Positions 25,754-64,000 of a stretch of 64,000 bases of DNA are shown here, piece after piece. Made by a program: the position numbers and the translations under genes. Within the stretch, counting starts at the first letter, position 1. Every line of letters begins with the position of its first letter. This stretch comes from a virus, in the IMG/VR virus record IMGVR_UViG_3300021142_000021, positions 18,376-82,375 of that record; one strand, written 5' to 3'. The notes beneath the pieces were generated by a model. The model did no database searches, was not told where the DNA came from, and saw only the letters and a program-made list of their open reading frames with translations.

Positions 25754-26320
25754 ATGATAGATTCCTGGTTTATTATAAATTATACAAATGCATTGTGGTC
25801 ACTACCCCCGGAAAATTCTCCTACATACGAAGAATTTCAACAGATGTTCAGATCACATGAAATTTATAGATATGAATGGGCATTAAATCAGCTAGGTCAG
25901 TTAAGGATTGTTTCGGATGAAACAACTGTACTAGTGGGTGCTGGGTATGGTGTCTCGAGCTTAATGCTACAACGATTCTACAAATATATACCTATAACTT
26001 TACTAGAAACGAATTCCAAGTATGAAGTATTCTTAAATCATCTCATTAAAGTTATACCGCTTTTGAAGACAGAGATAAATGACATTTATACTCGCACTTA
26101 TACGGAACAGATTGTTATAAGTCTATCTTGCGAAAACATAGATGTAAAGAAATGGATAAAAAAATTACCAAAACATACAATTGTGGTCCTACAGACACTA
26201 AATGATTTTGATGAATTTAAAGAACAAACACAGTTATCTGAGACCTTATTCTCGGATACTCTAAAGATAGAAACATCCGTAGGTACAATCACACGCAATA
26301 TGTTAATAGGACGCACATGA
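25754..26320 (+). CDS. Divergent methyltransferase paralogue
   Basis: MIDS.F.I.YTN..., VLVGAGYG, SLSCEN aligned with the previous gene. Confidence 0.65.
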   Translation: MIDSWFIINYTNALWSLPPENSPTYEEFQQMFRSHEIYRYEWALNQLGQLRIVSDETTVLVGAGYGVSSLMLQRFYKYIPITLLETNSKYEVFLNHLIKVIPLLKTEINDIYTRTYTEQIVISLSCENIDVKKWIKKLPKHTIVVLQTLNDFDEFKEQTQLSETLFSDTLKIETSVGTITRNMLIGRT

Positions 26321-27714
26321 AAACACTAACTATCCCAATTCACGCTTTTAGAGATCAACTAAATGCAATAAGCCCGTCCTTTTGCGCTGCAAAGTGGCAG
26401 CAGGTTACTTTGCATCTCCAGACAGGACATACGCATAGTTGTCACCACCCGCGTACACATAAGATTCCATTAGATGAATTATTAGCAAATCCGTCAGCAT
26501 TACATAACACAAACTTTAAGAAGTTGCAAAGAAAGAAGATGCTCGAGGGTGTTCGTCCTAACGAATGCGATTATTGCTGGAGAATAGAAGACGGTCCCGG
26601 TGATGGCCTCAGCGACAGAATTTATAAATCGTCCGATGACTGGGCGATTCCACACATCGACGCAATTAAAGAGATGCCATGGGATAATGATGTTGTCCCT
26701 TCTTACTTAGAGGTATCTTTTAGTAGTGTGTGTAACTTTAAATGCAGTTATTGCACCCCACAGGTTAGTAGTAAATGGATGGAAGAAATTGAGAAATTTG
26801 GACCATATCCTACATCTACGAAGTTTGGCGATATTGAATGGCTAAGACAGAGTGATGCTATGCCTATTCCTCATAAAGATGAAAATCCTTATGTCGACGC
26901 ATTCTGGAAATGGTGGCCAGATATCTATACTAAGTTAGAGCATTTCCGTATCACCGGTGGTGAACCGTTGCTCACAAAGGATACATTTAAGGTATTAGAT
27001 TATGTCATTGATAATCCTAATCCTAATTTACGTCTCTCTATAAACACTAATATGTGTCCACCAGACGGATTATTAGATAAATTTATTGAGAAAATTAAGA
27101 TTATTTGTGGAGAGAAGAAGGTAAAACAACTCAATATTTTTACCAGCGCAGAAGCACATGGTAAGCAGGCAGAGTATATTCGACATGGGTTAGATTACAA
27201 TAAATGGTTATCGAATATTAGAAAAGTATTAAGTGAAGTACCTAACTGTACATTCACGATTATGAGTACCTATAATCTGCTCAGTGTTACCACATACAAA
27301 GAATTTATGAAGGATATTCTGCAAATCAAATTAGATTTTAGCAGATTCGATAGGCCAGATTCACCGATTATTCTTGATGTCCCATATCTACGATATCCAA
27401 CTCATCAGGCAATTTTTGTTATGCCTGAGAAATTCTTACCAATTGTATATGATCAGGTAACCTTTATTCATCAACATATTGAGAATTCATTATGGTTTGG
27501 TACTGCAAGTAAAGGCTTCTATCAATGGGAGGCAGACAAGTTTAAGAGAATTTACGAATTGGTCTGTAAGGTAAAAGACGTAGAAGCAGTTAATCAAAAT
27601 CAGAAAGACTTTATTAAATTTGTTGATGAGCACGATCGTCGACGAGGCACAAATTTCTTAGAAACATTCCCTGAGATGGAAGAAGAATATCGTAAATGGT
27701 CTAAGGCTCTATGA
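26317..27714 (+). CDS. Radical SAM protein with N-terminal twitch-like Cys cluster
   Basis: CNFKCSYC, ITGGEP, FCAAKW..SCHH..ECDYCW. Confidence 0.9.
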   Translation: MKTLTIPIHAFRDQLNAISPSFCAAKWQQVTLHLQTGHTHSCHHPRTHKIPLDELLANPSALHNTNFKKLQRKKMLEGVRPNECDYCWRIEDGPGDGLSDRIYKSSDDWAIPHIDAIKEMPWDNDVVPSYLEVSFSSVCNFKCSYCTPQVSSKWMEEIEKFGPYPTSTKFGDIEWLRQSDAMPIPHKDENPYVDAFWKWWPDIYTKLEHFRITGGEPLLTKDTFKVLDYVIDNPNPNLRLSINTNMCPPDGLLDKFIEKIKIICGEKKVKQLNIFTSAEAHGKQAEYIRHGLDYNKWLSNIRKVLSEVPNCTFTIMSTYNLLSVTTYKEFMKDILQIKLDFSRFDRPDSPIILDVPYLRYPTHQAIFVMPEKFLPIVYDQVTFIHQHIENSLWFGTASKGFYQWEADKFKRIYELVCKVKDVEAVNQNQKDFIKFVDEHDRRRGTNFLETFPEMEEEYRKWSKAL

Positions 27715-54018: not shown

Positions 54019-54243
54019 TTATAAACCGAATTTAAGTTTGAATGCTTTTGTATCTTCTTCGTGGCGAAATATAATTCCACCTGCGATATCAACTCCATAT
54101 GCACATATGGTATAGGTGTGATCAAACTGCCAGTTACCATCTGCTACATTATCGTGGCACCAGTCTTCAACAGTTCGGAAAAGCATATAGGATTCAACAA
54201 CGTCAATATTACCAATTACATTTTGTAACCTTATATTTGCCAT
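54019..54243 (-). CDS. FKLKFGL-family mini-protein 16
   Basis: Ends HEEDTKAFKLKFGL; own GATAAATA at 54267-54274. Confidence 0.8.
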   Translation of the reverse strand: MANIRLQNVIGNIDVVESYMLFRTVEDWCHDNVADGNWQFDHTYTICAYGVDIAGGIIFRHEEDTKAFKLKFGL

Positions 54244-54276
54244 TAAATCCTCTAGCTAATTGGCAGTATTTATCTT

Positions 54277-54474
54277 CTATAAACCAAATTTAAGTCTAAA
54301 AGCTAACGCATCTTCTCTAGTTTCAAATCGTATTGTACCGGGATGGTGTGTACCAAATCCGTAGAGTTGCCAGTTAGATCTGCCAATAGTTCCATTTAGC
54401 CATCGTCGATATTCATTATTATGATCAAAGAATTTCCCATCGAAATTAAATTCTATAAAGTATTCTTCATCCAT
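54277..54474 (-). CDS. FKLKFGL-family mini-protein 15
   Basis: Ends REDALAFRLKFGL. Confidence 0.8.
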   Translation of the reverse strand: MDEEYFIEFNFDGKFFDHNNEYRRWLNGTIGRSNWQLYGFGTHHPGTIRFETREDALAFRLKFGL

Positions 54475-54751
54475 TGAATTTTAACTTTATTATTAGCCAG
54501 AGTTCTTCATGTACATCGAACATATTAGTCACATAAAATTCTCTATCTATTTTTCCTAACTTATGTATATACCATTGCCTCTGATCTTGTGTCTGCAACC
54601 ACTCTGTTACATCTCTAGATACCAATATAGTATACCACATTACACCATCTACTTCAGCCTGAGCTTCTATTCTGTGGAAAGCATTAACGGACCCGTCGGT
54701 ACTAGCCCATGTCACTTCTATACCTTGTTCCTTAAACTTCACACCATCCAT
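54467..54751 (-). CDS. FKLKFGL-family mini-protein 14 (divergent)
   Basis: TAATG-coupled start; ends HEELWLIIKLKFNG. Confidence 0.7.
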   Translation of the reverse strand: MDGVKFKEQGIEVTWASTDGSVNAFHRIEAQAEVDGVMWYTILVSRDVTEWLQTQDQRQWYIHKLGKIDREFYVTNMFDVHEELWLIIKLKFNG

Positions 54752-54957
54752 TACATCCACCTTAATTTGAATATTACAGCATCTTCCTGTTCCAGGAATA
54801 CACCTGCTAAATGACCATTCACATGACCCCATTCGGGCTCTGTATTTTCTTTTAACCAGTCAATCATGCCATCGGGTGCCTTAAATTCACCATACTTACC
54901 ATGCGGAGGAAAAGCAACGTATATAACACCCTCTCCATATTCTCTAACTGACATCAT
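54751..54957 (-). CDS. FKLKFGL-family mini-protein 13
   Basis: Ends QEDAVIFKLRWM. Confidence 0.8.
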   Translation of the reverse strand: MMSVREYGEGVIYVAFPPHGKYGEFKAPDGMIDWLKENTEPEWGHVNGHLAGVFLEQEDAVIFKLRWM

Positions 54958-55229
54958 GGTAATGGTTTAGCCTGTAGTTTAATCCACATAAATTCTTCCA
55001 TGTCGCATTCGCCGAATGTCTCTTTTAAATCTTCCATTCGATTTTTATAATATCTAACTTCGTTATCTTCCTCACGCCATACTCTTTCCGCGAGTGTCAA
55101 TGCCGTGCTATTATATAGTAATCTCGTCTCGAAATGTTCGTTAGAGATGCTATGAACATCGCGCTGCACCCAATACCTGCCTCGTACACCATACCAAGAA
55201 CCATCTGCCTCGTAATAAAGATTTACCAT
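54954..55229 (-). CDS. FKLKFGL-family mini-protein 12 (divergent)
   Basis: Ends MEEFMWIKLQAKPLP. Confidence 0.65.
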   Translation of the reverse strand: MVNLYYEADGSWYGVRGRYWVQRDVHSISNEHFETRLLYNSTALTLAERVWREEDNEVRYYKNRMEDLKETFGECDMEEFMWIKLQAKPLP

Positions 55230-55230
55230 A

Positions 55231-55446
55231 TTATCTAAACATCAATTTAAAAACTAAAACATCTGCTTCATCTGCAAAGATTAGAAACTCAGTGTTTCCT
55301 ACTCTATCTACTGTTCTTGTTGCTCTAAAGTCTTCTGATAACCATAACCAAATAGAAGTAACAAAAAACCCATCTCTATTCTGAATATCGTTACCGTAGT
55401 AATAAGCTACCATATTCTTCCAGTAGGGATATGCGTATAGTTTCAT
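55231..55446 (-). CDS. FKLKFGL-family mini-protein 11
   Basis: Ends EADVLVFKLMFR. Confidence 0.8.
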   Translation of the reverse strand: MKLYAYPYWKNMVAYYYGNDIQNRDGFFVTSIWLWLSEDFRATRTVDRVGNTEFLIFADEADVLVFKLMFR

Positions 55447-55631
55447 AGTCCGCTCATTAATTTAAACGCTACTGCATCCATCTCGTCTTCGAATTGTATA
55501 GAAATTATACGACCCAGGTAACCGTGCTTACGTGGCTCACGCACTACAACACCTCCGTGAGTCTTAGCCCATACAAGTAAAGGATACCTAGGCTTGACTA
55601 CTTTAAAATAATTGTATTCTATGCTTATCAT
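55443..55631 (-). CDS. FKLKFGL-family mini-protein 10
   Basis: Ends EMDAVAFKLMSGL. Confidence 0.8.
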   Translation of the reverse strand: MISIEYNYFKVVKPRYPLLVWAKTHGGVVVREPRKHGYLGRIISIQFEDEMDAVAFKLMSGL

Positions 55632-55858
55632 AATCCATACTTCAATCTAAATGCTGTAGCATCCTCACGCCTGACAAATGTTACAGCAAATACAGCCTTA
55701 CCATAGTTATATTTCTTCATTCTAAATGCAGGGTTACCGCGCTTAGTTTTTGGTAATGCTGCCAACCAATGTGATTGTTCTATCAATACCTGCACATCAA
55801 GGTTGGCCACAGAGTCCATTATGTCGTTACCTTTTTTAAAGATGTAAATTGTTTTCAT
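55628..55858 (-). CDS. FKLKFGL-family mini-protein 9
   Basis: Ends REDATAFRLKYGL. Confidence 0.8.
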   Translation of the reverse strand: MKTIYIFKKGNDIMDSVANLDVQVLIEQSHWLAALPKTKRGNPAFRMKKYNYGKAVFAVTFVRREDATAFRLKYGL

Positions 55859-56067
55859 AAACCAAACTTTAATTTAAATACCAACAGGTCTTCTTCACTA
55901 TCTAATAATACCATGTGATAATAGGTCTTACCGTCTAGATAAGTTTTACCACCATTATAATCCCAGACTGCATTATCACACATATGTATCCATTCGTTAA
56001 TCACAGAATACTCTTTAATAGCCCATGGTCGATAAAGTCGTACGTGTATGCCTTCTTCTACTATCAT
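55855..56067 (-). CDS. FKLKFGL-family mini-protein 8
   Basis: Ends EEDLLVFKLKFGL. Confidence 0.8.
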   Translation of the reverse strand: MIVEEGIHVRLYRPWAIKEYSVINEWIHMCDNAVWDYNGGKTYLDGKTYYHMVLLDSEEDLLVFKLKFGL

Positions 56068-56243
56068 AATCCAAACTTTAGTTTAAAAGCAATTGCGTCA
56101 TCTTCTCTTACAAAATACAGAGTTTGATCACCATGTAATTCGAATGTTACTTTATTCGGGGACTGTTTTATTAAGTCATCTAACCAATCGCATATTATAG
56201 AGTCAGGTATCTTATCATCCATTGGCCAATATACTTTTATCAT
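56064..56243 (-). CDS. FKLKFGL-family mini-protein 7 (59 aa, not in ORF track)
   Basis: MIKVYWPMDD...REDDAIAFKLKFGL; ATGA-coupled on both sides. Confidence 0.8.
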   Translation of the reverse strand: MIKVYWPMDDKIPDSIICDWLDDLIKQSPNKVTFELHGDQTLYFVREDDAIAFKLKFGL

Positions 56244-56413
56244 AATCCAAACTTTATCTTAAATGCAAGTGCATCTTCCTCGTAGAAGAACTCAATACTT
56301 TCTAGCATATTACTCCACCGCCAAACATTATTCTCAGTACCTAGTACTTCTTCCATCCACGCAATCATAGGAATAAAATCCATAAAGTTAACATTGCGTA
56401 TGTCTACAATCAT
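56240..56413 (-). CDS. FKLKFGL-family mini-protein 6 (57 aa, not in ORF track)
   Basis: MIVDIRNVNF...YEEDALAFKIKFGL. Confidence 0.8.
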   Translation of the reverse strand: MIVDIRNVNFMDFIPMIAWMEEVLGTENNVWRWSNMLESIEFFYEEDALAFKIKFGL

Positions 56414-56619
56414 ATTCCAAACTTTAATCTAAGTATTACAGCTTGTTCAGAATCTATGGTTACTCCACATAGATATCCCGGCCTGGATTTAGAAACACCC
56501 CAGCTAGAATAATTTTGATTTTGTTCTTCTATATTTTCATGTATCCAGTCTTCTAACTCTTTATTCTTAAGACGTTGATCATTGTATCGCTCCATACCAG
56601 CAAAACTAATATAACTCAT
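56410..56619 (-). CDS. FKLKFGL-family mini-protein 5
   Basis: Ends SEQAVILRLKFGI. Confidence 0.8.
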   Translation of the reverse strand: MSYISFAGMERYNDQRLKNKELEDWIHENIEEQNQNYSSWGVSKSRPGYLCGVTIDSEQAVILRLKFGI

Positions 56620-56795
56620 ATTCCTAGTTTTAACCTCATAATAATTGCATCCTCATCTGACATATCTATTCTATCAATAACAAAATCATCCTCACACATT
56701 GTATATGTGTATTGAATCTTATCATCGGCCAGCCATTGTAAAATTGTATTATACATAGGTAGTGGCAAACGTTTCATCTCAATGTACACCATCAT
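56616..56795 (-). CDS. FKLKFGL-family mini-protein 4 (59 aa, not in ORF track)
   Basis: MMVYIEMKRL...DEDAIIMRLKLGI. Confidence 0.75.
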   Translation of the reverse strand: MMVYIEMKRLPLPMYNTILQWLADDKIQYTYTMCEDDFVIDRIDMSDEDAIIMRLKLGI

Positions 56796-56982
56796 ACGCC
56801 CAATATTTAAGTTTAAAGGCTAATGCATCCTCCGAATTACCAAACGTAATAGTATCAGTAGCACTGCTCCAATGATAATCCTTTATATTGTTATCATCTA
56901 GCCAACCCTTCATTTCCTTATAGTATGCTATGTCCTGCCGTTGCTTAATATAAAAGCTATGTAAAGGATATATCATAATCAT
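56779..56982 (-). CDS. FKLKFGL-family mini-protein 3
   Basis: SEDALAFKLKY followed by a short frameshift-like tail WAYDGVH. Confidence 0.8.
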   Translation of the reverse strand: MIMIYPLHSFYIKQRQDIAYYKEMKGWLDDNNIKDYHWSSATDTITFGNSEDALAFKLKYWAYDGVH

Positions 56983-57176
56983 AATGCAAACTTTAATTTG
57001 ATTATGGTAGCATCTTCGTCGTTTAGTATAAGTCCAAGAAACATTCCATTTCTAAAATCCCAATCAGGTTCTTCTATATTTTCTACTACCCAATTATAGA
57101 CGTGTGACGGAATACCACCTATCCAGACTCCTGGTGCATTTAATTTTGGCAACCCTCTGAAGTTAATATATGTCAT
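56979..57176 (-). CDS. FKLKFGL-family mini-protein 2
   Basis: Ends DEDATIIKLKFAL. Confidence 0.8.
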   Translation of the reverse strand: MTYINFRGLPKLNAPGVWIGGIPSHVYNWVVENIEEPDWDFRNGMFLGLILNDEDATIIKLKFAL

Positions 57177-57463
57177 ACAATAAAACTTAGTTTAAACATT
57201 AATGCAACTTGAGCTTCCTTAAAATAGATACCCTGTGCGTAACGATCCCCTGTACGGTATTCCCATGTTTCCCCTCGTGAACCTAAGTGCTCCTCTAACC
57301 AAATCATATAGCTATTCATAAGTCTAACCTTAACACCATAAGAGCGTGGATCATTATCTAAATCATGAAGATCAACATATGTCCAATTTGAAAAGTTTAC
57401 ATAACGTTTAGGAACACCCTTATGGTCTAGAGATTCGGAAATGTGATTGTCAATGGGAATCAT
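57173..57463 (-). CDS. FKLKFGL-family mini-protein 1
   Basis: Ends AQVALMFKLSFIV; start at ATG 57463 (or 57469). Confidence 0.7.
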   Translation of the reverse strand: MIPIDNHISESLDHKGVPKRYVNFSNWTYVDLHDLDNDPRSYGVKVRLMNSYMIWLEEHLGSRGETWEYRTGDRYAQGIYFKEAQVALMFKLSFIV

Positions 57464-57469
57464 AGACAT

Positions 57470-57498
57470 AGTATAACAATGATTAAGTTGGATGTCAA
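57470..57498 (-). promoter_or_regulatory. Sigma70 promoter TTGACA-N17-TATACT (extended -10) heading the mini-gene array
   Basis: Minus strand TTGACA tccaacttaatcattgt TATACT. Confidence 0.8.
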
Positions 57499-57754: not shown

Positions 57755-57803
57755 GGGACCTATAGAGATAGAACGATTAGAAAGGAGGGACCTATAGAGA
57801 TAG
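57755..57803 (+). repeat. Direct repeat GGGACCTATAGAGATAG x2 (32-bp period)
   Basis: 57755-57771 and 57787-57803. Confidence 0.9.
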
Positions 57804-57880
57804 GCGAAAAAACATAGGGCACGCTTGCCCGCGCCTCTCTATCTTTACCTTTTTGTAAAATTACACGACTGACTGGGATT

Positions 57881-57920
57881 TTACAAAACTTTACATAACT
57901 TTACATAACTTTACATTACT
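57881..57920 (+). repeat. Tandem 10-mer TTACAWWACT x4
   Basis: ttacaaaact ttacataact ttacataact ttacattact. Confidence 0.95.
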
Positions 57921-58090
57921 GTGTCTCGCTTGCCACTGCACGCAACTAAATGTAAGTGCGAGGCAACGTGCTGCACGTTAGCACACGCTAACATACAGTC
58001 TCGCTGCTACTATGCACGCTACATGCATAGTAGCACGGGGGTGCTACATGTAACACATGTAACATAGCTTGCGCTATGCTACGTTATGTG

Positions 58091-58429
58091 TTAAGCAAAC
58101 AAGCGCAATACAATTGCGTTTTGCGTTTGCACAACACTAGCGTTATATTGCTTTGCAAGTAGCATTAAGTTGCTACATACTTGCGCGTTGTTAACTTTAA
58201 TGCTAACAAACTTAGCACGTAAGTTTGTGTACACGCGCTGCTTAAAGTACGTTGCTTGCACAGCACGCGCTAATGCTGCTACTGTAGCGTGCTGTGCTGC
58301 TGTGTACAGCGCAGCGTTTGCAGCGTTTTGTGCGCGTACTTGCAACAGCGTAATAAACGCGCTGTGCTTTACGTTTGTGTTAGCTTGTGTTTTAACAAGC
58401 TGCTGCTGTGCTTTTGTAAGTTTACGCAT
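58091..58429 (-). CDS. Hypothetical 112-aa protein with no D, E, G, P or W
   Basis: Leader homologous to that of 58847; hairpins downstream of the stop. Confidence 0.7.
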   Translation of the reverse strand: MRKLTKAQQQLVKTQANTNVKHSAFITLLQVRAQNAANAALYTAAQHATVAALARAVQATYFKQRVYTNLRAKFVSIKVNNAQVCSNLMLLAKQYNASVVQTQNAIVLRLFA

Positions 58430-58475
58430 AATTGCTTTACTTTGTTTGTGCTGCACATTATTGTACAGTGCTTGT

Positions 58476-58504
58476 ATTATAACGCTTTTTTGTGCTGCTG
58501 TGTG
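58476..58504 (-). promoter_or_regulatory. Putative GR-free promoter CACACA-N17-TATAAT (left)
   Basis: Same spacing as 58763-58791. Confidence 0.55.
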
Positions 58505-58762
58505 CTACTTTACAAACTGTTACACTTTAGCATTTCATGCTGCATTGCTCAAGTTGCACAGCGAGGGGTTAATGTTTTATGCGCTGCACACTGCCTCGCA
58601 ATTATTTTAAGCTTGCTGAAAATTTTTAACGAGAGCTGTGCTATAATATGTTTAACGCGCAATGTATAACTGTAACTATACTTTTTGGGCCTCGCTTAGC
58701 AAATAGCAATAATGCAGCATGAACTTGTTAGATGTAACAGTTTGTAAGTTGCAAAAATACAA

Positions 58763-58791
58763 CACACAAAACATAAAAAGTGCGCTATAAT
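58763..58791 (+). promoter_or_regulatory. Putative GR-free promoter CACACA-N17-TATAAT (right)
   Basis: Mirror of 58476-58504. Confidence 0.55.
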
Positions 58792-58846
58792 AATAACACT
58801 GCACAGCAATAATGCTAAGTGCAGCAACTTAGTAAAGTAAACAATT

Positions 58847-59440
58847 ATGCTTACATTAGCTTACGCGCAAGCTGCAATTGCAGCGCACAAAAACAACAAA
58901 GTAAATGCTACGCGCATTAGTGCTTTGTTGCAACAATACAACAACACAGCTACAATCGCAAACGTAACGCAAGTTACGCAAGTGCAATGCAGCGCGGCAA
59001 ACAAAAATGTTGTTATACAAAAAGTAACACGCGCAAGTGTGTTGCTGTTTGCTAACGCATTAAATTATGTTGCTTGCGTACAACGCAGCGCAGCTAAAAT
59101 TGCAGACAACGACGCTGCTGCAATCGCGCAATTTACAGCAAGCGCAGCAAGCTTTACGCACGATGCTAACTGCTACAGCATTGTTACAAACAACAATAGC
59201 GCACAGCAATATTTGTATTTGCACTACAACAACGCGCAAAGTGTGTATGTTTTAAACAACACAATTATTAGTGCTGCAACTGCTGCAAGCTTTTGCAGTG
59301 CAAGCGTAGCAAAAGCAATGTTGCAAACAAGCAACACTACGCACAATGTTAGCAATAACGTAACGCATAGCATTTGTGTACGCACTGTAAAGTTGCAAAA
59401 CATTGTGCGTTTAGCTGCGCTAAAGCAAGTGTTGCAGTAA
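58847..59440 (+). CDS. Hypothetical 197-aa protein with no E, G, P or W and only 3 D
   Basis: Long ORF with promoter and terminator. Confidence 0.8.
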   Translation: MLTLAYAQAAIAAHKNNKVNATRISALLQQYNNTATIANVTQVTQVQCSAANKNVVIQKVTRASVLLFANALNYVACVQRSAAKIADNDAAAIAQFTASAASFTHDANCYSIVTNNNSAQQYLYLHYNNAQSVYVLNNTIISAATAASFCSASVAKAMLQTSNTTHNVSNNVTHSICVRTVKLQNIVRLAALKQVLQ

Positions 59441-59470
59441 AACAACAAGTAGCGCAAGCTACTTAACGCA

Positions 59471-59497
59471 AAGCGCACTATTTTAGTGCGCTTTTTT
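59471..59497 (+). terminator. Intrinsic terminator
   Basis: aagcgcacta-ttt-tagtgcgctt followed by a T run. Confidence 0.85.
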
Positions 59498-59561
59498 ATG
59501 CGCGTTATAATCGTGCTGCATTGCTCAAGTCCTGCAACGAGGGGAAGTGCTGCTGTGTCGT

Positions 59562-59718
59562 GCTACTGTTTTTAAAGACGTACATGCGTGCAAAGCGAGG
59601 GCAACACATTGTTACATCTTGCTTTTAGGCTAAGCTTAGTCTACATCCTTTAAGCAAGATGTAACACACACGCGCATCTCGCTATTGTTTTTAAAGACGT
59701 ACATGCGTGCAAAGCGAG
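59562..59718 (+). repeat. 38-bp direct repeat x2 flanking a long hairpin
   Basis: GCTAYTGTTTTTAAAGACGTACATGCGTGCAAAGCGAG at 59562-59599 and 59681-59718; 15-bp stem 59610-59624/59652-59666. Confidence 0.9.
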
Positions 59719-60018
59719 AGGGGCACAATATTGCTAACCTATCTACCATTTTGCTGTGTCCGTGCTGCAGGTTTTTTAGGTATTAAAAACCTAATACGAG
59801 AGGGTGCTTTGACATTTATAAGCAACTGTAGTAAACAGCGTTTAAAAGCAATACTGCTACTCTGCTATTAACTTTTGTTTTAGTGCTGCTGTAGCGCGTT
59901 TTAAGCTGCTTGCTGCACGTTGTAAACTAGCTGTGTAAAGCAAGCACGCAACACAAAGGTGTGTCTCGCACTAGGTTTTTAAGGATAAAAAATCCTGCAG
60001 CGAGACTATGCGGCCACA

Positions 60019-60041
60019 ATAAAAGGGACCTAAGTCCCTTT
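60019..60041 (-). terminator. Intrinsic terminator for minus-strand early genes
   Basis: aaagggac-ctaa-gtcccttt with a T run on the minus strand. Confidence 0.75.
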
Positions 60042-60060
60042 GTGTGTCGCCCAGTAAGGG

Positions 60061-60309
60061 CTAGTCGTTTATAATCAGCGCCGTGCAGTAAGCGAGCGCA
60101 CTGTTTAAGCTGACACTGTTCATTGTGGGCTTGTAACGCCAGCCCATTGTGTCCTCACCGCTTGCGTCTTTGTCAGCGCCTGTAAACATAAACGCATAGC
60201 CGTCTATGCTGATGTATTGCCCCGGGGAGCCAATCTGCAGGTCGCTTGCCTCTGCGACGTAGGTTTTGCTGATGGGATTGTAATCAAACTGTTCTGATTT
60301 GAAGTTCAT
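60061..60309 (-). CDS. Hypothetical early protein
   Basis: AAGGAG SD before ATG 60309. Confidence 0.75.
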   Translation of the reverse strand: MNFKSEQFDYNPISKTYVAEASDLQIGSPGQYISIDGYAFMFTGADKDASGEDTMGWRYKPTMNSVSLNSALAYCTALIIND

Positions 60310-60319
60310 CTGCTGCTCC

Positions 60320-60421
60320 TTAGAGGAATGTGTAAAGGATGACAATCGCCATTACAACCAATACAATAAGCACAGGTTGTAAGTCCCTTACACCTATTAG
60401 GTCTTGTAGAAAGCGTTTCAT
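60320..60421 (-). CDS. 33-aa membrane peptide (not in ORF track)
   Basis: MKRFLQDLIGVRDLQPVLIVLVVMAIVILYTFL; AAGGAG SD; promoter upstream. Confidence 0.7.
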   Translation of the reverse strand: MKRFLQDLIGVRDLQPVLIVLVVMAIVILYTFL

Positions 60422-60445
60422 GCTGCTCCTTGTTGCGATGTATGT

Positions 60446-60474
60446 ATTATAGCGCAGTAGGAGCAGGTTGTCAA
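60446..60474 (-). promoter_or_regulatory. Consensus sigma70 promoter TTGACA-N17-TATAAT
   Basis: Perfect consensus. Confidence 0.9.
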
Positions 60475-60767
60475 TCCTCTTCTACGACTTTTTTCGCCTT
60501 AGGTGGCAGGGGTGTAAGTGCCTCGCCAAATAGCTTCTGGAGTTTGCGTTGGATTGCGAGAGCGGTGACATCACGCACCTCAGCGGCATCAAACTTAACC
60601 TTCAGACGAGCAACTGACTCATCAAGGTATCGCCTCGACACATCGCTCAAGGTCGTCTGATAGGCGCACGAGGTTTGCACCAGCGATGTGTCATAGCCTG
60701 CCAGGAGGATGTAGCCACGGTCCTTGTCGGCGGGCATAACGCGGATGAAGAGGGTTTGTATTTTCAT
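60471..60767 (-). CDS. Hypothetical early protein
   Basis: ATGA-coupled to 60764-60916. Confidence 0.75.
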   Translation of the reverse strand: MKIQTLFIRVMPADKDRGYILLAGYDTSLVQTSCAYQTTLSDVSRRYLDESVARLKVKFDAAEVRDVTALAIQRKLQKLFGEALTPLPPKAKKVVEED

Positions 60768-60916
60768 TTGAAGCTGCTTTCAATCTTTTTGCAGAGTGCG
60801 TCATACTGTTCTTTAGTCAAAGGCGTGAACCGTTGACTCTCACTTCTGTGAACATGCTCTGCATAGCCCGTTGTGCGCTCCCAGTATTTGTCGTGTTGTT
60901 CGGGTGTGAAGTCCAT
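60764..60916 (-). CDS. 50-aa hypothetical protein (not in ORF track)
   Basis: MDFTPEQHDKYWERTTG...; AAGGAG SD. Confidence 0.75.
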   Translation of the reverse strand: MDFTPEQHDKYWERTTGYAEHVHRSESQRFTPLTKEQYDALCKKIESSFK

Positions 60917-60939
60917 CTGTGCTCCTTGTTGCTTACGCT

Positions 60940-60967
60940 ATTATAGCACAGAAAACAGTGCTGTCAA
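60940..60967 (-). promoter_or_regulatory. Sigma70 promoter TTGACA-N16-TATAAT
   Basis: Consensus hexamers. Confidence 0.85.
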
Positions 60968-60979
60968 GCACTGCCACAC

Positions 60980-61216
60980 TTAATAAACTTCGAGCTCGTG
61001 TATGCAATAACGTGCGCCGAGCTGTCGTAGCGCAGCTCTGCAGGGTTCAGGCGAGACACTCCAGAACGTGTAGTCGATCTCTTGCTTAAGATCGGCTGTA
61101 ATCTCGCATTCGTACAGTTCATAGATGTCATTGTTGCTGAGGTTGATGCACGCTTCTGCGAACTGTTGCATACTGTGAATGCGCTTTGCAAGTGCTTTGA
61201 GTTGCTTACGTGACAT
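60980..61216 (-). CDS. Hypothetical early protein
   Basis: MSRKQLKALAK; AAGGAG SD before ATG 61216. Confidence 0.75.
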   Translation of the reverse strand: MSRKQLKALAKRIHSMQQFAEACINLSNNDIYELYECEITADLKQEIDYTFWSVSPEPCRAALRQLGARYCIHELEVY

Positions 61217-61244
61217 ATTGTGTACTCCTTGTTGCGATGTGTTT

Positions 61245-61273
61245 ATTATAGCGCAAAGGAACTGTGCTGTCAA
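61245..61273 (-). promoter_or_regulatory. Consensus sigma70 promoter TTGACA-N17-TATAAT
   Basis: Perfect consensus. Confidence 0.9.
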
Positions 61274-61905
61274 CAACTATTTTTCGCCTCGGTACCGATG
61301 CACGCAACTACTTTTGTCTGCAGAGACTTGCGTTTATTGCGTTCACGCTGTTGTGCATTTCTACGTAATCTTATTTCATCGGGTGTTAAATTTAACTTAT
61401 TATGTGGTACTCTGCCCATCTTAGCGCGGGATTCTGCTGTATGTTTTTTACCGAACATATGATTATTCGAGCCCTGTAGTGCTACACTAATTTTAGCATT
61501 ACGCGCTGGATTAGTCCATACTTCTTGCATTGATGCTGTATAACGTTCCATAGTCTCGGGTTTAGCATAGGCAGAACGATTGCTTATGCTCGAGGCTTGT
61601 TTTGCGGCATCTGTGTGTATGTAGCCACTGCTTCCATCTCCTCCATCGGATTTGTTACGAAGTATGCCAGTCCCATTGTCCTTTCTTCCATACCAGCGTA
61701 TAATACGACGCTCAATAGCGAACGCACCTAACTCAGTAAGGTTAGCCTCAAGAATTACTATGAGAGCTCTATTAGTTGGAGGCGAGACTATGTGTTGTTT
61801 GCTCTTAGAGCGTTTTCCCTTACCTTTGCCTATATAGTAAGGTGTCCCATCCTCGCGTAAGTAAGCGTAGACATAGAACGCAAGGGACGAGACTATTTTA
61901 TACAT
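61270..61905 (-). CDS. GIY-YIG homing endonuclease with NUMOD3 motifs
   Basis: [19 protein letters not shown]...ILRNKSDGG; GATAAATA at 61910-61917 (-). Confidence 0.9.
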
Positions 61906-62048
61906 ACGCTATTTATCGATTGTAAGCAGATGTAACAGTTAAAATAATGCTTGCTCGAAGTTGTTTTCTGCCATATAATAAGCACATGGAAACAAATAAA
62001 GCAAACAAAAAGCAAGCGCAAGCAAGCATGTTTGTTACAATTTATTTG

Positions 62049-62077
62049 TTGACATTGGAGCACAATGGTGCTACAAT
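62049..62077 (+). promoter_or_regulatory. Sigma70 promoter TTGACA-N17-TACAAT
   Basis: Extended -10 TG present. Confidence 0.8.
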
Positions 62078-62141
62078 ACATATATGCGCTAAACGGTGCA
62101 TATTGTTTAACTAACGTGCTAAGGCACAAAGGAGAGCTATC

Positions 62142-62621
62142 ATCGATAAAGGAATCAGACCGGCCGCGAACGCCAAGTTTTTGGAGTTGCTCCCCACCCG
62201 CGCTGAAATTGGCAACACCGGCTTCCGCAAGAACGTTATGTTTTACGTGATGGAGGAATTCGGCATCACGCTTGCAAGTGCTGCAACGCACTACAATCAC
62301 GCTTTCCAAGCTGTTAAGCTTGCAACTCCCGAGCTGGTGGAAGGGCTGGGGCGTGCAGACGACAAGAAGGGCGGACGCAAGCCCAAAGCTGTTGTTGTTG
62401 CAGAAGCTGTTGCTGTGCTGCTTGGCACGCCGGAAGCTGTTGCAACACCCGCAGTTGGCGGCGAAGTCAGCAATGCAGGCGAAACTGCTCCAGAGCAGAC
62501 GGTGTTTACAGTGAAGAAGAAGTCCGACGACACGGTGATCGGGACGTTCAGCTTCGAAGATGCAAAGGCGTTGGTGGCAAAGGCTGCTGCTGCTAAGAAG
62601 GCTGCACTTTATTACGTTTGA
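62142..62621 (+). CDS. Hypothetical early protein, apparent ATC start
   Basis: AAAGGAG SD 7 nt before in-frame ATC-GAT-AAA; alternative TTG start at 62181. Confidence 0.7.
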   Translation: MDKGIRPAANAKFLELLPTRAEIGNTGFRKNVMFYVMEEFGITLASAATHYNHAFQAVKLATPELVEGLGRADDKKGGRKPKAVVVAEAVAVLLGTPEAVATPAVGGEVSNAGETAPEQTVFTVKKKSDDTVIGTFSFEDAKALVAKAAAAKKAALYYV

Positions 62622-62636
62622 TTGATAAATAAGAGC

Positions 62637-63299
62637 ATGAGCTCTTATTACGTTTACGCTTACCTTAGGACAGGAAACCTAACACCTTATTACATAGGTA
62701 AAGGTAAGCGCGAACGTGCCTTCATAAAACACGGTAGAATTACCGTACCAAAAGATAAATCTCGTATCGTGTTCTTAGAATGTAACCTATCAGAGATAGG
62801 TGCATTCGCTATAGAACGACGTATGATTAAATGGTATGGTAGAAAAGATAATGGAACAGGTATTCTTAGGAACATAACCGATGGTGGAGACGGGTGTTCG
62901 GGTCGTATCTATAGACACACAGCAGAAACTAAAGCTAAGATTAGTGCTGCTCAGGTAGGAATGCTGCGCGGACCTCATACAGAAGAGACAAAGTCAAAAC
63001 TCAAGGCAGCGAGGGCACTTAGACCTCCCGCCTCGGATGAGACTCGCAGGCGTATGAGTGAATCTCTCCGAGGAGAAAAGAATCCCAACTTTGGAAAAAC
63101 TGCTACAGCTGAACAGCTAGAAGCTGCCAGTGCATTACGTCGTAATATACCTAGATCGCCTACTGCCTGTGCTAAACATAGCGCCACAATAAAAGGCATA
63201 CCAAAACCTAAACTCACTTGCCCTCACTGCGGGCTCACTGGCGGCACCCCGCAAATGAAGAGATATCATTTTGATAACTGCAAACAAAAACCTATGTAG
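62637..63299 (+). CDS. GIY-YIG homing endonuclease with NUMOD3 and C-terminal zinc-finger motif
   Basis: YYVYAYLR...PYYIGKG; CPHC...HFDNC; GATAAATA at 62624-62631. Confidence 0.9.
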
Positions 63300-63460
63300 G
63301 AATGATACTCCGATCGGCGGTTATATCTATATACATCTGTTATGTCGATCCTGTGTAGCGGTCTGTCTTGACTACGTTGTTAATGTAGTCACACGCAGGA
63401 AGCACATACGCATTACTTACACATTTGTTAGTCTAAGATTAGCCTTTTTCTGGCTAATCC

Positions 63461-63634
63461 CTAGTCACCAAACGCATATACAAGCATAGGTTCGTCCTCT
63501 AAGCACTCAACGCGCACAATATCTGTATCGCGGAGCATCTCTTCTTGAAGATCACACGCTTCCATCTCATTGCATTGCTCAGCACACAGCACAGCACCCT
63601 TTGCACTGTAGCCAATGATAGTTACTGTTGTCAT
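63461..63634 (-). CDS. 57-aa acidic hypothetical protein (not in ORF track)
   Basis: MTTVTIIGYSAKG...; GGAG SD; hairpin gattagcc/ggctaatc after the stop. Confidence 0.7.
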   Translation of the reverse strand: MTTVTIIGYSAKGAVLCAEQCNEMEACDLQEEMLRDTDIVRVECLEDEPMLVYAFGD

Positions 63635-63648
63635 ACGATACTCCAGTG

Positions 63649-63795
63649 TTAAAAGGGGATAATCTGCGTCTTAGCACGCAGGCCATGTTGCATCTGATAC
63701 AAGCGGCATTCCTGTAGTGTGCCTATCATGTAAGCTGAACCAACTACTACACTACCGAACTTACCTTCATCGGATACAACCATGTACTTGCCCAT
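63649..63795 (-). CDS. 48-aa hypothetical protein (not in ORF track)
   Basis: MGKYMVVSDEG...; AGGAG SD; promoter TAGACC-N17-TATAAT at 63829-63857. Confidence 0.7.
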   Translation of the reverse strand: MGKYMVVSDEGKFGSVVVGSAYMIGTLQECRLYQMQHGLRAKTQIIPF

Positions 63796-64000
63796 ACGTT
63801 ACTCCTGTGTGTAGTGTGCTATGTATGTATTATACTGTCTGCAGGAGCAAAGGTCTATGCCTGTTTAGGCCTCTAGGCGGGAAAGTTGTGCCAGAACCTG
63901 TCGCTAGATCCCAGTTTTAGTTTCCAATTCTGGTTTGGACTTTTGATCTGGAAACCTAGGATCAGATTGACAGTTCATGCACTCACAGTCATAGCGAGTC

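Follow-up and report, generated by a model that had tools for sequence, protein, structure and literature searches.

For phage CAjan, preQ0 is reported at GA and GGC (PMC7544227), and for the jumbo phage PA5oct the authors infer G modification within a GA and/or GG motif and report QueE-like and PTPS-like genes, modification-dependent END nucleases being described as targeting phages of this type (PMC12191111). In the portions of these papers that treat the modification, its location is described, not genes written without the motif (PMC7544227, PMC12191111). Selection is reported to remove a short DNA word because it is read in the avoidance of restriction sites and protospacer-adjacent motifs (PAMs), the depletion of PAMs in phages being in print (PMC4246573, PMC12174588); these known cases are genome-wide and statistical, with mild depletion of words of 2-6 bases. 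Defence enzymes with two- to four-base specificities that include GA or TC are described as acting against T-even-like phages: CmdT of CmdTAC is reported to ADP-ribosylate adenine in GA of single-stranded RNA (bioRxiv 10.1101/2024.02.24.581662), and DarT2 to modify TNTC in single-stranded DNA (PMC11543638). Here we describe an island in a 64-kb stretch of an uncultured phage contig (IMG/VR record IMGVR_UViG_3300021142_000021; hereafter the window) in which GA and GG (together GR), and with them TC and CC (YC), are almost absent from both strands around two genes, ORF112 and ORF197, whose products are written in a reduced amino-acid alphabet.

The steps purged from this island are the GA and GG contexts reported for the 7-deazaguanine phages CAjan and PA5oct. 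The window phage is PA5oct-like by its baseplate protein and its relatives carry FolE and QueD-like genes, although PA5oct has no such island. The likeness to restriction-site and PAM avoidance lies in the removal of a short word that is read, but here two dinucleotide steps are almost wholly removed, over 0.6-2 kb around one gene and with the loss of five amino acids, and in one relative (G001, a 353-kb, 99%-complete genome) on one strand only. The purged homologue of G001 retains GA and GG in its mRNA, unlike a CmdT target. Messenger RNAs without ACA, most of them engineered, escape the mRNA interferase MazF, which reads a three-base word and only in RNA; there too a gene lacks the word of a sequence-specific activity and coding freedom is reduced, whereas the purge described here arose naturally, takes in promoters and terminators, and affects both strands alike or the template specifically. 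Engineered proteins likewise fold from fewer than 20 residue types, but those described here are natural and repeatedly evolved, without acidic residues, Gly or Pro, and their homologues span 1-37 such residues. A limited literature search found no published description of gene-local GA/GG purging, which is not proof of absence.

The observation is genuine, lies far beyond chance, and recurs in many uncultured freshwater jumbo phages. Between positions 58091 and 59440 of the window, GA, GG, TC and CC together make up 1.7% of dinucleotides (23/1349), and the 2 kb flanking the island on its two sides have 19.4% and 18.2%. Symmetric odds ratios in the core (58061-59500) are 0.09 for GA/TC and 0.07 for GG/CC; for the remaining window they are 1.01 and 1.08. 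Several 200-bp segments of the island contain none of the four steps, the mean across the window being 36.6, and fewer than 15 per 200 bp are seen within the 64 kb only here and in single segments at 59801 and 61901. Nor is the purge spread across the genome, as the ORF197 locus of G001 is the minimum of GR+YC in its 353 kb and the only place where it falls below 11%. The GC step is over-represented 2.7-3-fold in the island because G must then precede C or T, and the G+C fraction is 0.41-0.42 compared with 0.36 elsewhere in the window. We also note that the larger segment bearing the locus is relatively G+C-rich (0.42-0.47 in window 58001-64000 and 0.43-0.47 in G001 320001-353233, the genome remainder being 0.33-0.41), and that two exact 17-nt direct repeats 32 nt apart (57755-57803) lie directly left of the island in GR-rich DNA.

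A recount of the amino acids agrees with the initial annotation that the ORF112 protein lacks Asp, Glu, Gly, Pro and Trp and that the ORF197 protein has three Asp but no Glu, Gly, Pro or Trp. All 16 + 4 Ser codons of the two ORFs are AGY, all 5 + 6 Arg codons are CGY, and CTC, TTC, GTC, ACC and GCC are unused. The missing residues and the restriction of Ser and Arg to these codons arise because GA and GG are avoided on both DNA strands. The same five residues make up 24.3% of 35 long open reading frames (ORFs) of the window (15,215 aa), and the binomial probabilities are about 6e-20 for ORF197 (at most 3 of 197) and 3e-14 for ORF112 (0 of 112). Both proteins are rich in Ala (38/197 in ORF197 and 22/112 in ORF112), with Asn and Gln likewise abundant, and their net charges are +10 and +14; the net charge shifts from between -4 and +6 in full-alphabet members to between +10 and +12 in reduced ones. 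The suggestion that the three retained Asp of ORF197 are essential did not hold up: position 87 is variable, position 89 is Asp in 14 of 26 strongly reduced homologues, position 106 is Asn in 14 of the 26, and Asp is missing altogether from certain homologues. As there are members without a single acidic residue, any activity cannot depend on Asp or Glu.

The initial annotation proposed a DNA constraint, and codon boundaries bear out that it is DNA or RNA which is constrained and which dictates the alphabet. ORF197 has 1 GR/YC at these positions where shuffling of codon order predicts 37.9 +/- 3.8, and ORF112 has 0 where 27.8 are predicted; the unbiased homologues of two related loci, L006 and L007, have 57 (53.6 expected) and 66 (72.1 expected). 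The leaders, -10 boxes and putative terminator are purged along with the coding sequence, and 6 GR/YC are left in the whole ORF197 ORF. The purge acts on the nucleic acid, not on amino acids, and selection maintains the near-absence of 5'-GR-3' on both strands from -10 box to terminator.

Both ORFs are real, conserved genes for folded proteins. Among 160 candidates, 41 homologues of ORF197 were found at E<=0.01, with 46-97% identity and lengths of 126-212 aa (196-212 aa in 40 of the 41), and a search of 1.84 billion proteins with ORF112 gave 22 cluster representatives at E<=1e-3, by construction less than 50% identical to each other. The ORF112 alignment has 22 rows, namely the window protein and all representatives except P0055, and 8 of these rows have no forbidden residue. 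Structure prediction, which the initial annotation had put forward as a check, gave confident AlphaFold models, with predicted local distance difference test (pLDDT) and template-modelling (pTM) scores of 92.9 and 0.84 for ORF197 (42-row alignment) and 88.6 and 0.72 for ORF112 (22-row alignment). The ratio of nonsynonymous to synonymous substitution (dN/dS), which should be near 1 had the genes been without function, is 0.12-0.26 (NG86, six pairs; a seventh, L006-L007, is saturated), and the homologues have intact lengths and no internal stops.

It is scarcely credible that the two ORFs are instead chance frames in non-coding or RNA-coding DNA from which TGA is absent, or that selection on amino acids or tRNAs produced the bias. 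Purged DNA does contain several long overlapping frames, such as the 136-146-aa antisense ORFs of the island, with frames of 146 and 126 aa opposite ORF112, and a 506-aa antisense frame at locus L005 (10869-12389, minus strand) that crosses five genes purged on one strand; this last frame encodes Cys/Leu/Val-rich nonsense and is likely a trap for gene callers. However, when the island was simulated with Markov models (orders 1-3, 2000 runs per order), the longest ORF with an ATG start had a mean of 75 aa and reached 197 aa in 0-0.1% of runs, both families are of conserved length with some members of normal composition, and the structure models and purifying selection are not those of chance frames. 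Rfam and tRNA scans of the island yielded sub-threshold rows at chance level, with no family and no tRNA, and a cause at the level of amino acids or tRNAs is ruled out because codon-boundary and untranslated positions are purged too.

The search for unbiased homologues proposed in the initial annotation succeeded, with L006, L007 and L016 each encoding 28-37 D/E/G/P/W residues, and the ORF197 family spans 1 to 37 such residues continuously, 26 of its 42 sequences having five or fewer. Substitutions were tabulated at columns where less biased members hold a forbidden residue and scored in the 26 reduced members, and they fit the proposal of selection. Asp is replaced by Asn (43%), Ser (15%) or Ala (15%); Glu by Ala (27%), Gln (24%), Thr (16%) or Val (13%), and by Lys in only 1%; Pro by Ala (61%) or Thr (13%), and by Leu and Ser in 1% each; and Gly by Ala (30%), Asn (22%), Ser (20%) or Lys (17%). 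The window and locus L009 are saturated at synonymous sites (dS 1.24), yet both remain purged (1.0% and 0.2%). Haplotypes from other sequencing runs also avoid single sites: one with 9 substitutions created 0 GR/YC (4.9 expected, P=0.01), and a more distant one with 28 substitutions created 1 (15.5 expected). In a maximum-likelihood tree the reduced state is found in three or more clades set apart by unbiased lineages, and the starred branches require no fewer than four changes, five rows of this tree being deviant in composition and poorly handled by the tree model.

These data make it highly improbable that the purge arose by context-specific hypermutation, such as YC-directed cytosine deamination or UV damage, with no selection. 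The commonest replacement of Asp, by Asn, is indeed a G-to-A transition. But the homologues do not differ merely by G-to-A and C-to-T transitions, as erosion of this type would have it: Glu to Lys, Pro to Leu and Pro to Ser are each rare, and the changes of Glu to Ala or Gln and of Pro or Gly to Ala need transversions. The high G+C and roughly threefold GC-step enrichment of the island, the low dN/dS and the absence of stops also speak against mutational origin, as does the retention of functional GGA or GGAG sites. Furthermore, the purge keeps to the limits of the gene or transcription unit, ending at locus L015 within ~100 bp of the ORF ends, and the partly purged flanks in the window give way to ~19% beyond the island. 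Some other causes were considered and dropped: avoidance of UV (6-4) photoproducts, as TT and CT are not depleted; avoidance of oxidation-prone GG/GA steps or of Z-DNA, for which no test was available or which the allowed steps contradict; and, likewise, avoidance of a homing-endonuclease target, GIY-YIG genes being present close to the locus both in L006 and in the window. The contexts of the remaining GR sites (CGAT, 9/67; CGGC, 9/67) are too sparse for refinement of a motif.

The extent of the purge was compared across 13 related loci, one of which (L008) is the window's own sequence. GR/YC makes up 0.2-0.8% of the ORF197 homologue in L009, L011, L012 and L013/L014, 3.0% in L015, 5.3% in L010, 10.3% in L005, and 20-25% in L006, L007 and L016/L017. 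Both GA/TC and GG/CC are depleted in all six strict islands (odds ratios 0.03-0.33), GA/TC more severely in four of them. ORF197 is the constant member of the purged locus, and the island is always centred on its homologue, consisting of that ORF alone in L015 and elsewhere extending 0.5-1.5 kb further upstream. In L009 and L011 the ORF112 homologue is purged and sits immediately upstream in the same orientation; where it is ~2 kb away it is partly purged (L013, 8.7%) or unbiased (L015, 24.9%). Extra reduced-alphabet ORFs of other families are found within the purged stretch in L012 (904-1422) and L011 (621-935, minus strand). In the segment 7576-9919 of L006, the unbiased ORF197 homologue directly follows an MvaI/BcnI-family restriction endonuclease gene (E 7e-23), and a GIY-YIG/NUMOD3 homing endonuclease is encoded nearby; a similar GIY-YIG gene is present in the window at 61270-61905, 1.8 kb from the island.

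A clue to the nature of the constraint comes from G001, whose locus is L005, in that the purge there is one-sided. Over the ORF197 homologue and four small genes downstream of it, TC+CC amounts to 0-1.5% of the sense strand, and GA+GG on the same strand of the same five genes is unpurged at 10-14%. Nowhere else in this genome is one strand purged over a sustained stretch (below 2.5%, 1-kb windows); a scan at 500 bp adds an isolated window at 85001. What all purged lineages share is thus the absence of GR from the template strand or, equivalently, of YC from the mRNA. Within the window, the ORF112 unit (58091-58481) contains 0 GR/YC in 391 positions and the ORF197 unit (58786-59497) 6 in 712, compared with 17 in the 304-bp spacer between the -10 boxes, and thus the constraint appears to be linked to transcription. 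We note that a minus-strand array of mini-paralogues at 54019-57498 resembles a weaker purge confined to one strand, with sense-strand TC+CC of 4.8% versus 7.7% in late genes and GA+GG of 13.7% versus 11.1%.

YC dinucleotides are the ligand of the primary binding sites of Rho, and YC-free early transcripts, some of them without a Shine-Dalgarno sequence, could escape Rho-dependent termination, perhaps with ORF197 itself acting on Rho. The low sense-strand YC of all purged homologues (0-1.5%), the one-strand case of G001 included, accords with such evasion, as do the stricter purging of transcribed units than of the spacer in the window, the loss of GGAG in strict islands, and the position of the residual YC sites examined in G001, in promoter stretches upstream of -10 boxes. 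The best structural match of the predicted ORF197 model is moreover the Rho inhibitor YaeO/Rof, at Z 6.1. That score is a middling one, however, with Sm, Hfq and WYL barrels at Z 4.5-5.1, and Rho evasion leaves unexplained the equally strict loss of GA and GG from the mRNA in the window, L009, L011, L012 and L013. Since loading of Rho needs several YC dimers, a few sites should also be tolerated, yet the purge is near absolute and variants avoid single sites. We therefore consider this explanation quite improbable.

Avoidance of a foreign nucleic-acid-targeting enzyme, whether a host defence or a phage shut-off activity reading a two-base step, is possible but unlikely. Candidates would be an ADP-ribosyltransferase, a dinucleotide-specific nuclease, or PAM-dependent CRISPR interference (CC, TTC or NGG), and the gene would have to remain expressible under attack. 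In support of this, CmdT and DarT2 are reported to read GA or TC and PAM depletion in phages has been published, the purge is labile among close relatives as are arms-race traits, its near-absoluteness suggests that each single site is costly, and its symmetry on both strands in the window fits a reader of double-stranded DNA. But sense-strand GA is 0.5% and 0% in the two window mRNAs, while the purged homologue of G001 retains 6.6% GA and 3.4% GG, so that an enzyme of the CmdT type, acting on GA in mRNA, cannot account for all cases. Purging a single strand leaves PAMs and restriction sites in place, and protection of one gene from a DNA cutter would not save the rest of the genome. To our knowledge no enzyme reads GG/CC together with GA/TC, which also counts against a foreign enzyme.

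The identity of the phage bears on the remaining explanation. The window is the last part of an 82,375-bp IMG/VR phage contig with a CheckV completeness of 21%, and it carries T4-like baseplate genes. The 1321-aa baseplate wedge protein is closest to those of PA5oct-like Pseudomonas jumbo phages (41% identity), then to Atu_ph07, Phosso and SCTP-2, and by this protein the source is placed as an uncultured PA5oct-like freshwater jumbo phage. The island is contained, at 90-100% of sampled words, in 20 DNA sequencing runs from 19 freshwater studies, 8 of which runs are possibly its own source; all run matches are DNA and none RNA, and they have no bearing on expression. IMG/VR scans for close relatives with either protein gave no match and an alignment-based scan gave 3 loci; a scan of prokaryote genomes gave no match, and neither did cultured phages in a DNA search or in tblastn with the L005, P0061 and L007 proteins.

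We tentatively favour, without putting it as high as even, the explanation that the locus avoids carrying the guanine modification which the phage itself would place at GA and GG, because it is the simplest single account of the motif, the strand clue and the clade. A 7-deazaguanine-type or other hypermodification of G would be placed at GA and GG sites of the phage genome, and the ORF197 locus, being without modifiable sites, would provide the genes that a host RNA polymerase not yet prepared for modified DNA could transcribe first, from the one modified genome entering the cell. Purging of the template strand would be the minimum need, as in G001, and purging of both strands, as in the window, may add escape from modification-dependent nucleases. 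The purged steps match the reported GA/GG(C) modification contexts in all six strict islands, a correspondence of motif which is not proof of modification. Both G001 and a second complete relative genome, G002, encode FolE and a QueD-like PTPS protein, and G002 also has a weak QueC-like piece. Matches to TGT/DpdA (PF01702) are absent from G001, G002 and the 82-kb fragment of the window's phage (G000); as there is none either in PA5oct, for which G modification is reported, this is not discriminating.

Several points weigh against modification as the cause. FolE, QueD and QueC were all missing from the 82 kb of the 21%-complete G000, and its radical SAM protein, encoded in a 'glycan island' (window 26317-27714), is of the NF033640 twitch-domain type (E 4e-104) and not QueE. 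PA5oct has neither a purged island, its lowest 500-bp windows being at 2.0-2.4%, nor a homologue of ORF197 or ORF112. In G002 the FolE, QueD-like and QueC-like genes coexist with an unbiased ORF197 homologue (24.5%), so that across the two complete genomes the purge does not follow the presence of the pathway. The modification chemistry is deduced from other phages, and most early genes of the window are unpurged. Phages with 7-deazaguanine such as CAjan transcribe fully modified early genes, and a block to transcription by modified G is therefore an assumption. Taken as a whole, the explanation that these are real early genes selected to be free of GR, with the phage's guanine modification as the reader of GR, stops only just short of an even call. 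It is more doubtful that ORF197 and its neighbours are 'bootstrap' genes, the only ones that a naive host RNA polymerase would read cleanly from a fully modified genome, and whose products would then enable the host to express the remaining modified genome or disarm modification-dependent nucleases.

The features of the island are listed in Table 1. The promoters of ORF112 and ORF197 are of early type, each with a GYTATAAT -10 box, and both leaders have a 5' hairpin. A consensus scan for promoters and terminators is uninformative because -35 boxes cannot be TTGACA here; it did not pick up the putative ORF197 terminator, over which (59427-59499) there are weak Rfam matches of terminator type. 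Comparison of Shine-Dalgarno sequences shows that L005, L006, L007, L011 and L015 retain GGA or GGAG, which in L011, L015 and L005 is nearly the sole GR exception nearby; the leaders of the window, L009, L012 and L013 have (A)GTAAAG-like or TAAAG-like words, and that of L010 has GAAAGTAAA. The residual GR/YC of the flanks at 57924-58042 and 59525-60005 is clustered in inverted CTCGC...GCGAG(G) pairs, and two repeats are present: one direct, of 52 nt, with copies at 59562-59613 and 59681-59732 that are 87% identical, and one of 34 nt, at 58535-58568 and again at 59511-59544. The pairs and the flank repeats may represent small RNAs or protein-binding sites.

Table 1. Features of the GR/YC-depleted island (positions in the window).
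Feature	Position	Strand	Description
GR/YC-depleted island	57880..59960	both	GA/TC and GG/CC odds ratios 0.17 and 0.19
Left flank	57880..58090		Partly purged, 5.2%; residual GR/YC clustered in CTCGC...GCGAG inverted motifs
ORF112	58091..58429 with stop (coding 58094-58429, ATG start)	-	112 aa; no D, E, G, P or W; DNA free of GR/YC
ORF112 leader	58430..58475	-	Same architecture as ORF197 leader: AGTAAAG, then ATG
ORF112 promoter, -10 box TATAAT	58476..58481	-	Promoter and leader are an inverted paralogue of ORF197 promoter and leader
Spacer between divergent -10 boxes	58482..58785		Partly purged, 17 GR/YC in 304 bp (5.6%); repeats and a further promoter-like site
ORF197 promoter, -10 box TATAAT	58786..58791	+	GYTATAAT context, conserved before the ORF197 homologue in 8 of 11 loci compared
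ORF197 leader	58792..58846	+	5' hairpin; AGTAAAG where relatives have GGA(G) Shine-Dalgarno
ORF197	58847..59440 with stop (coding 58847-59437)	+	197 aa; 3 Asp; no E, G, P or W
Intrinsic-terminator-like hairpin and T run, 3' of ORF197	59472..59497	+	Read from sequence; GR/YC-free
Right flank	59498..59960		Partly purged, 9.3%; GTTATAAT promoter-like site, 52-nt repeat x2, CTCGC/GCGAG(G) motifs

Searches for function were largely negative: both proteins, seen in the initial annotation as candidates for anti-defence or host takeover, have early-type promoters, but neither families nor folds nor a partner point to a role. Neither protein matched a PHROGs family at E<=0.01; the best PHROG matches of five ORF197 homologues are to two unrelated families without known function (E 0.003 and 0.005). 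Pfam gave nothing above cut-offs, NCBIfam-type models gave no relative of either protein, PDB profile searches gave 0 matches and one at E 0.63, and the ESM Atlas gave no usable match. The ORF197 model has no match at E<=1e-3 in a Foldseek search of PDB, and in BFVD it matches four uncharacterised phage proteins (E 3.5e-6 to 3.1e-5, template-modelling score ~0.5). Its match to YaeO (6jie_A) covers 67 residues with a root-mean-square deviation of 2.4 A, a Z below 8 possibly reflecting a mere common arrangement; its other matches to solved structures are small Sm/SH3/WYL-type barrels, and the predicted model may contain a small Sm/SH3-like barrel. The residues invariant among the 42 sequences include K59, Y74, H105, C109, N167, H174 and N185. 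ORF112 is modelled as two helices packed on a four-stranded sheet, with generic alpha/beta sandwich matches, the best (Z 7.2) being a designed protein. Prediction of an ORF197-ORF112 complex scored 0.00, which gives no verdict for or against binding. Our guess is that both proteins are early factors, needed before others, whose ligand is nucleic acid or some host protein.

This locus is a clear example from nature of protein composition being overridden by a rule on DNA words. Families graded from the full alphabet, with 37 D/E/G/P/W residues, to members with 0-1 constitute a natural series for the survival of a fold without acidic residues, Gly or Pro, and the purge outlines, with single-base precision, the footprint of a putative reader of GR that is linked to transcription. 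It may also allow phages with motif-specific guanine modification, together with the genes whose expression they need first, to be recognised from sequence alone. If these are indeed bootstrap genes, then a DNA chemistry of the phages' own making would have confined natural proteins to a 15-letter alphabet on several independent occasions.

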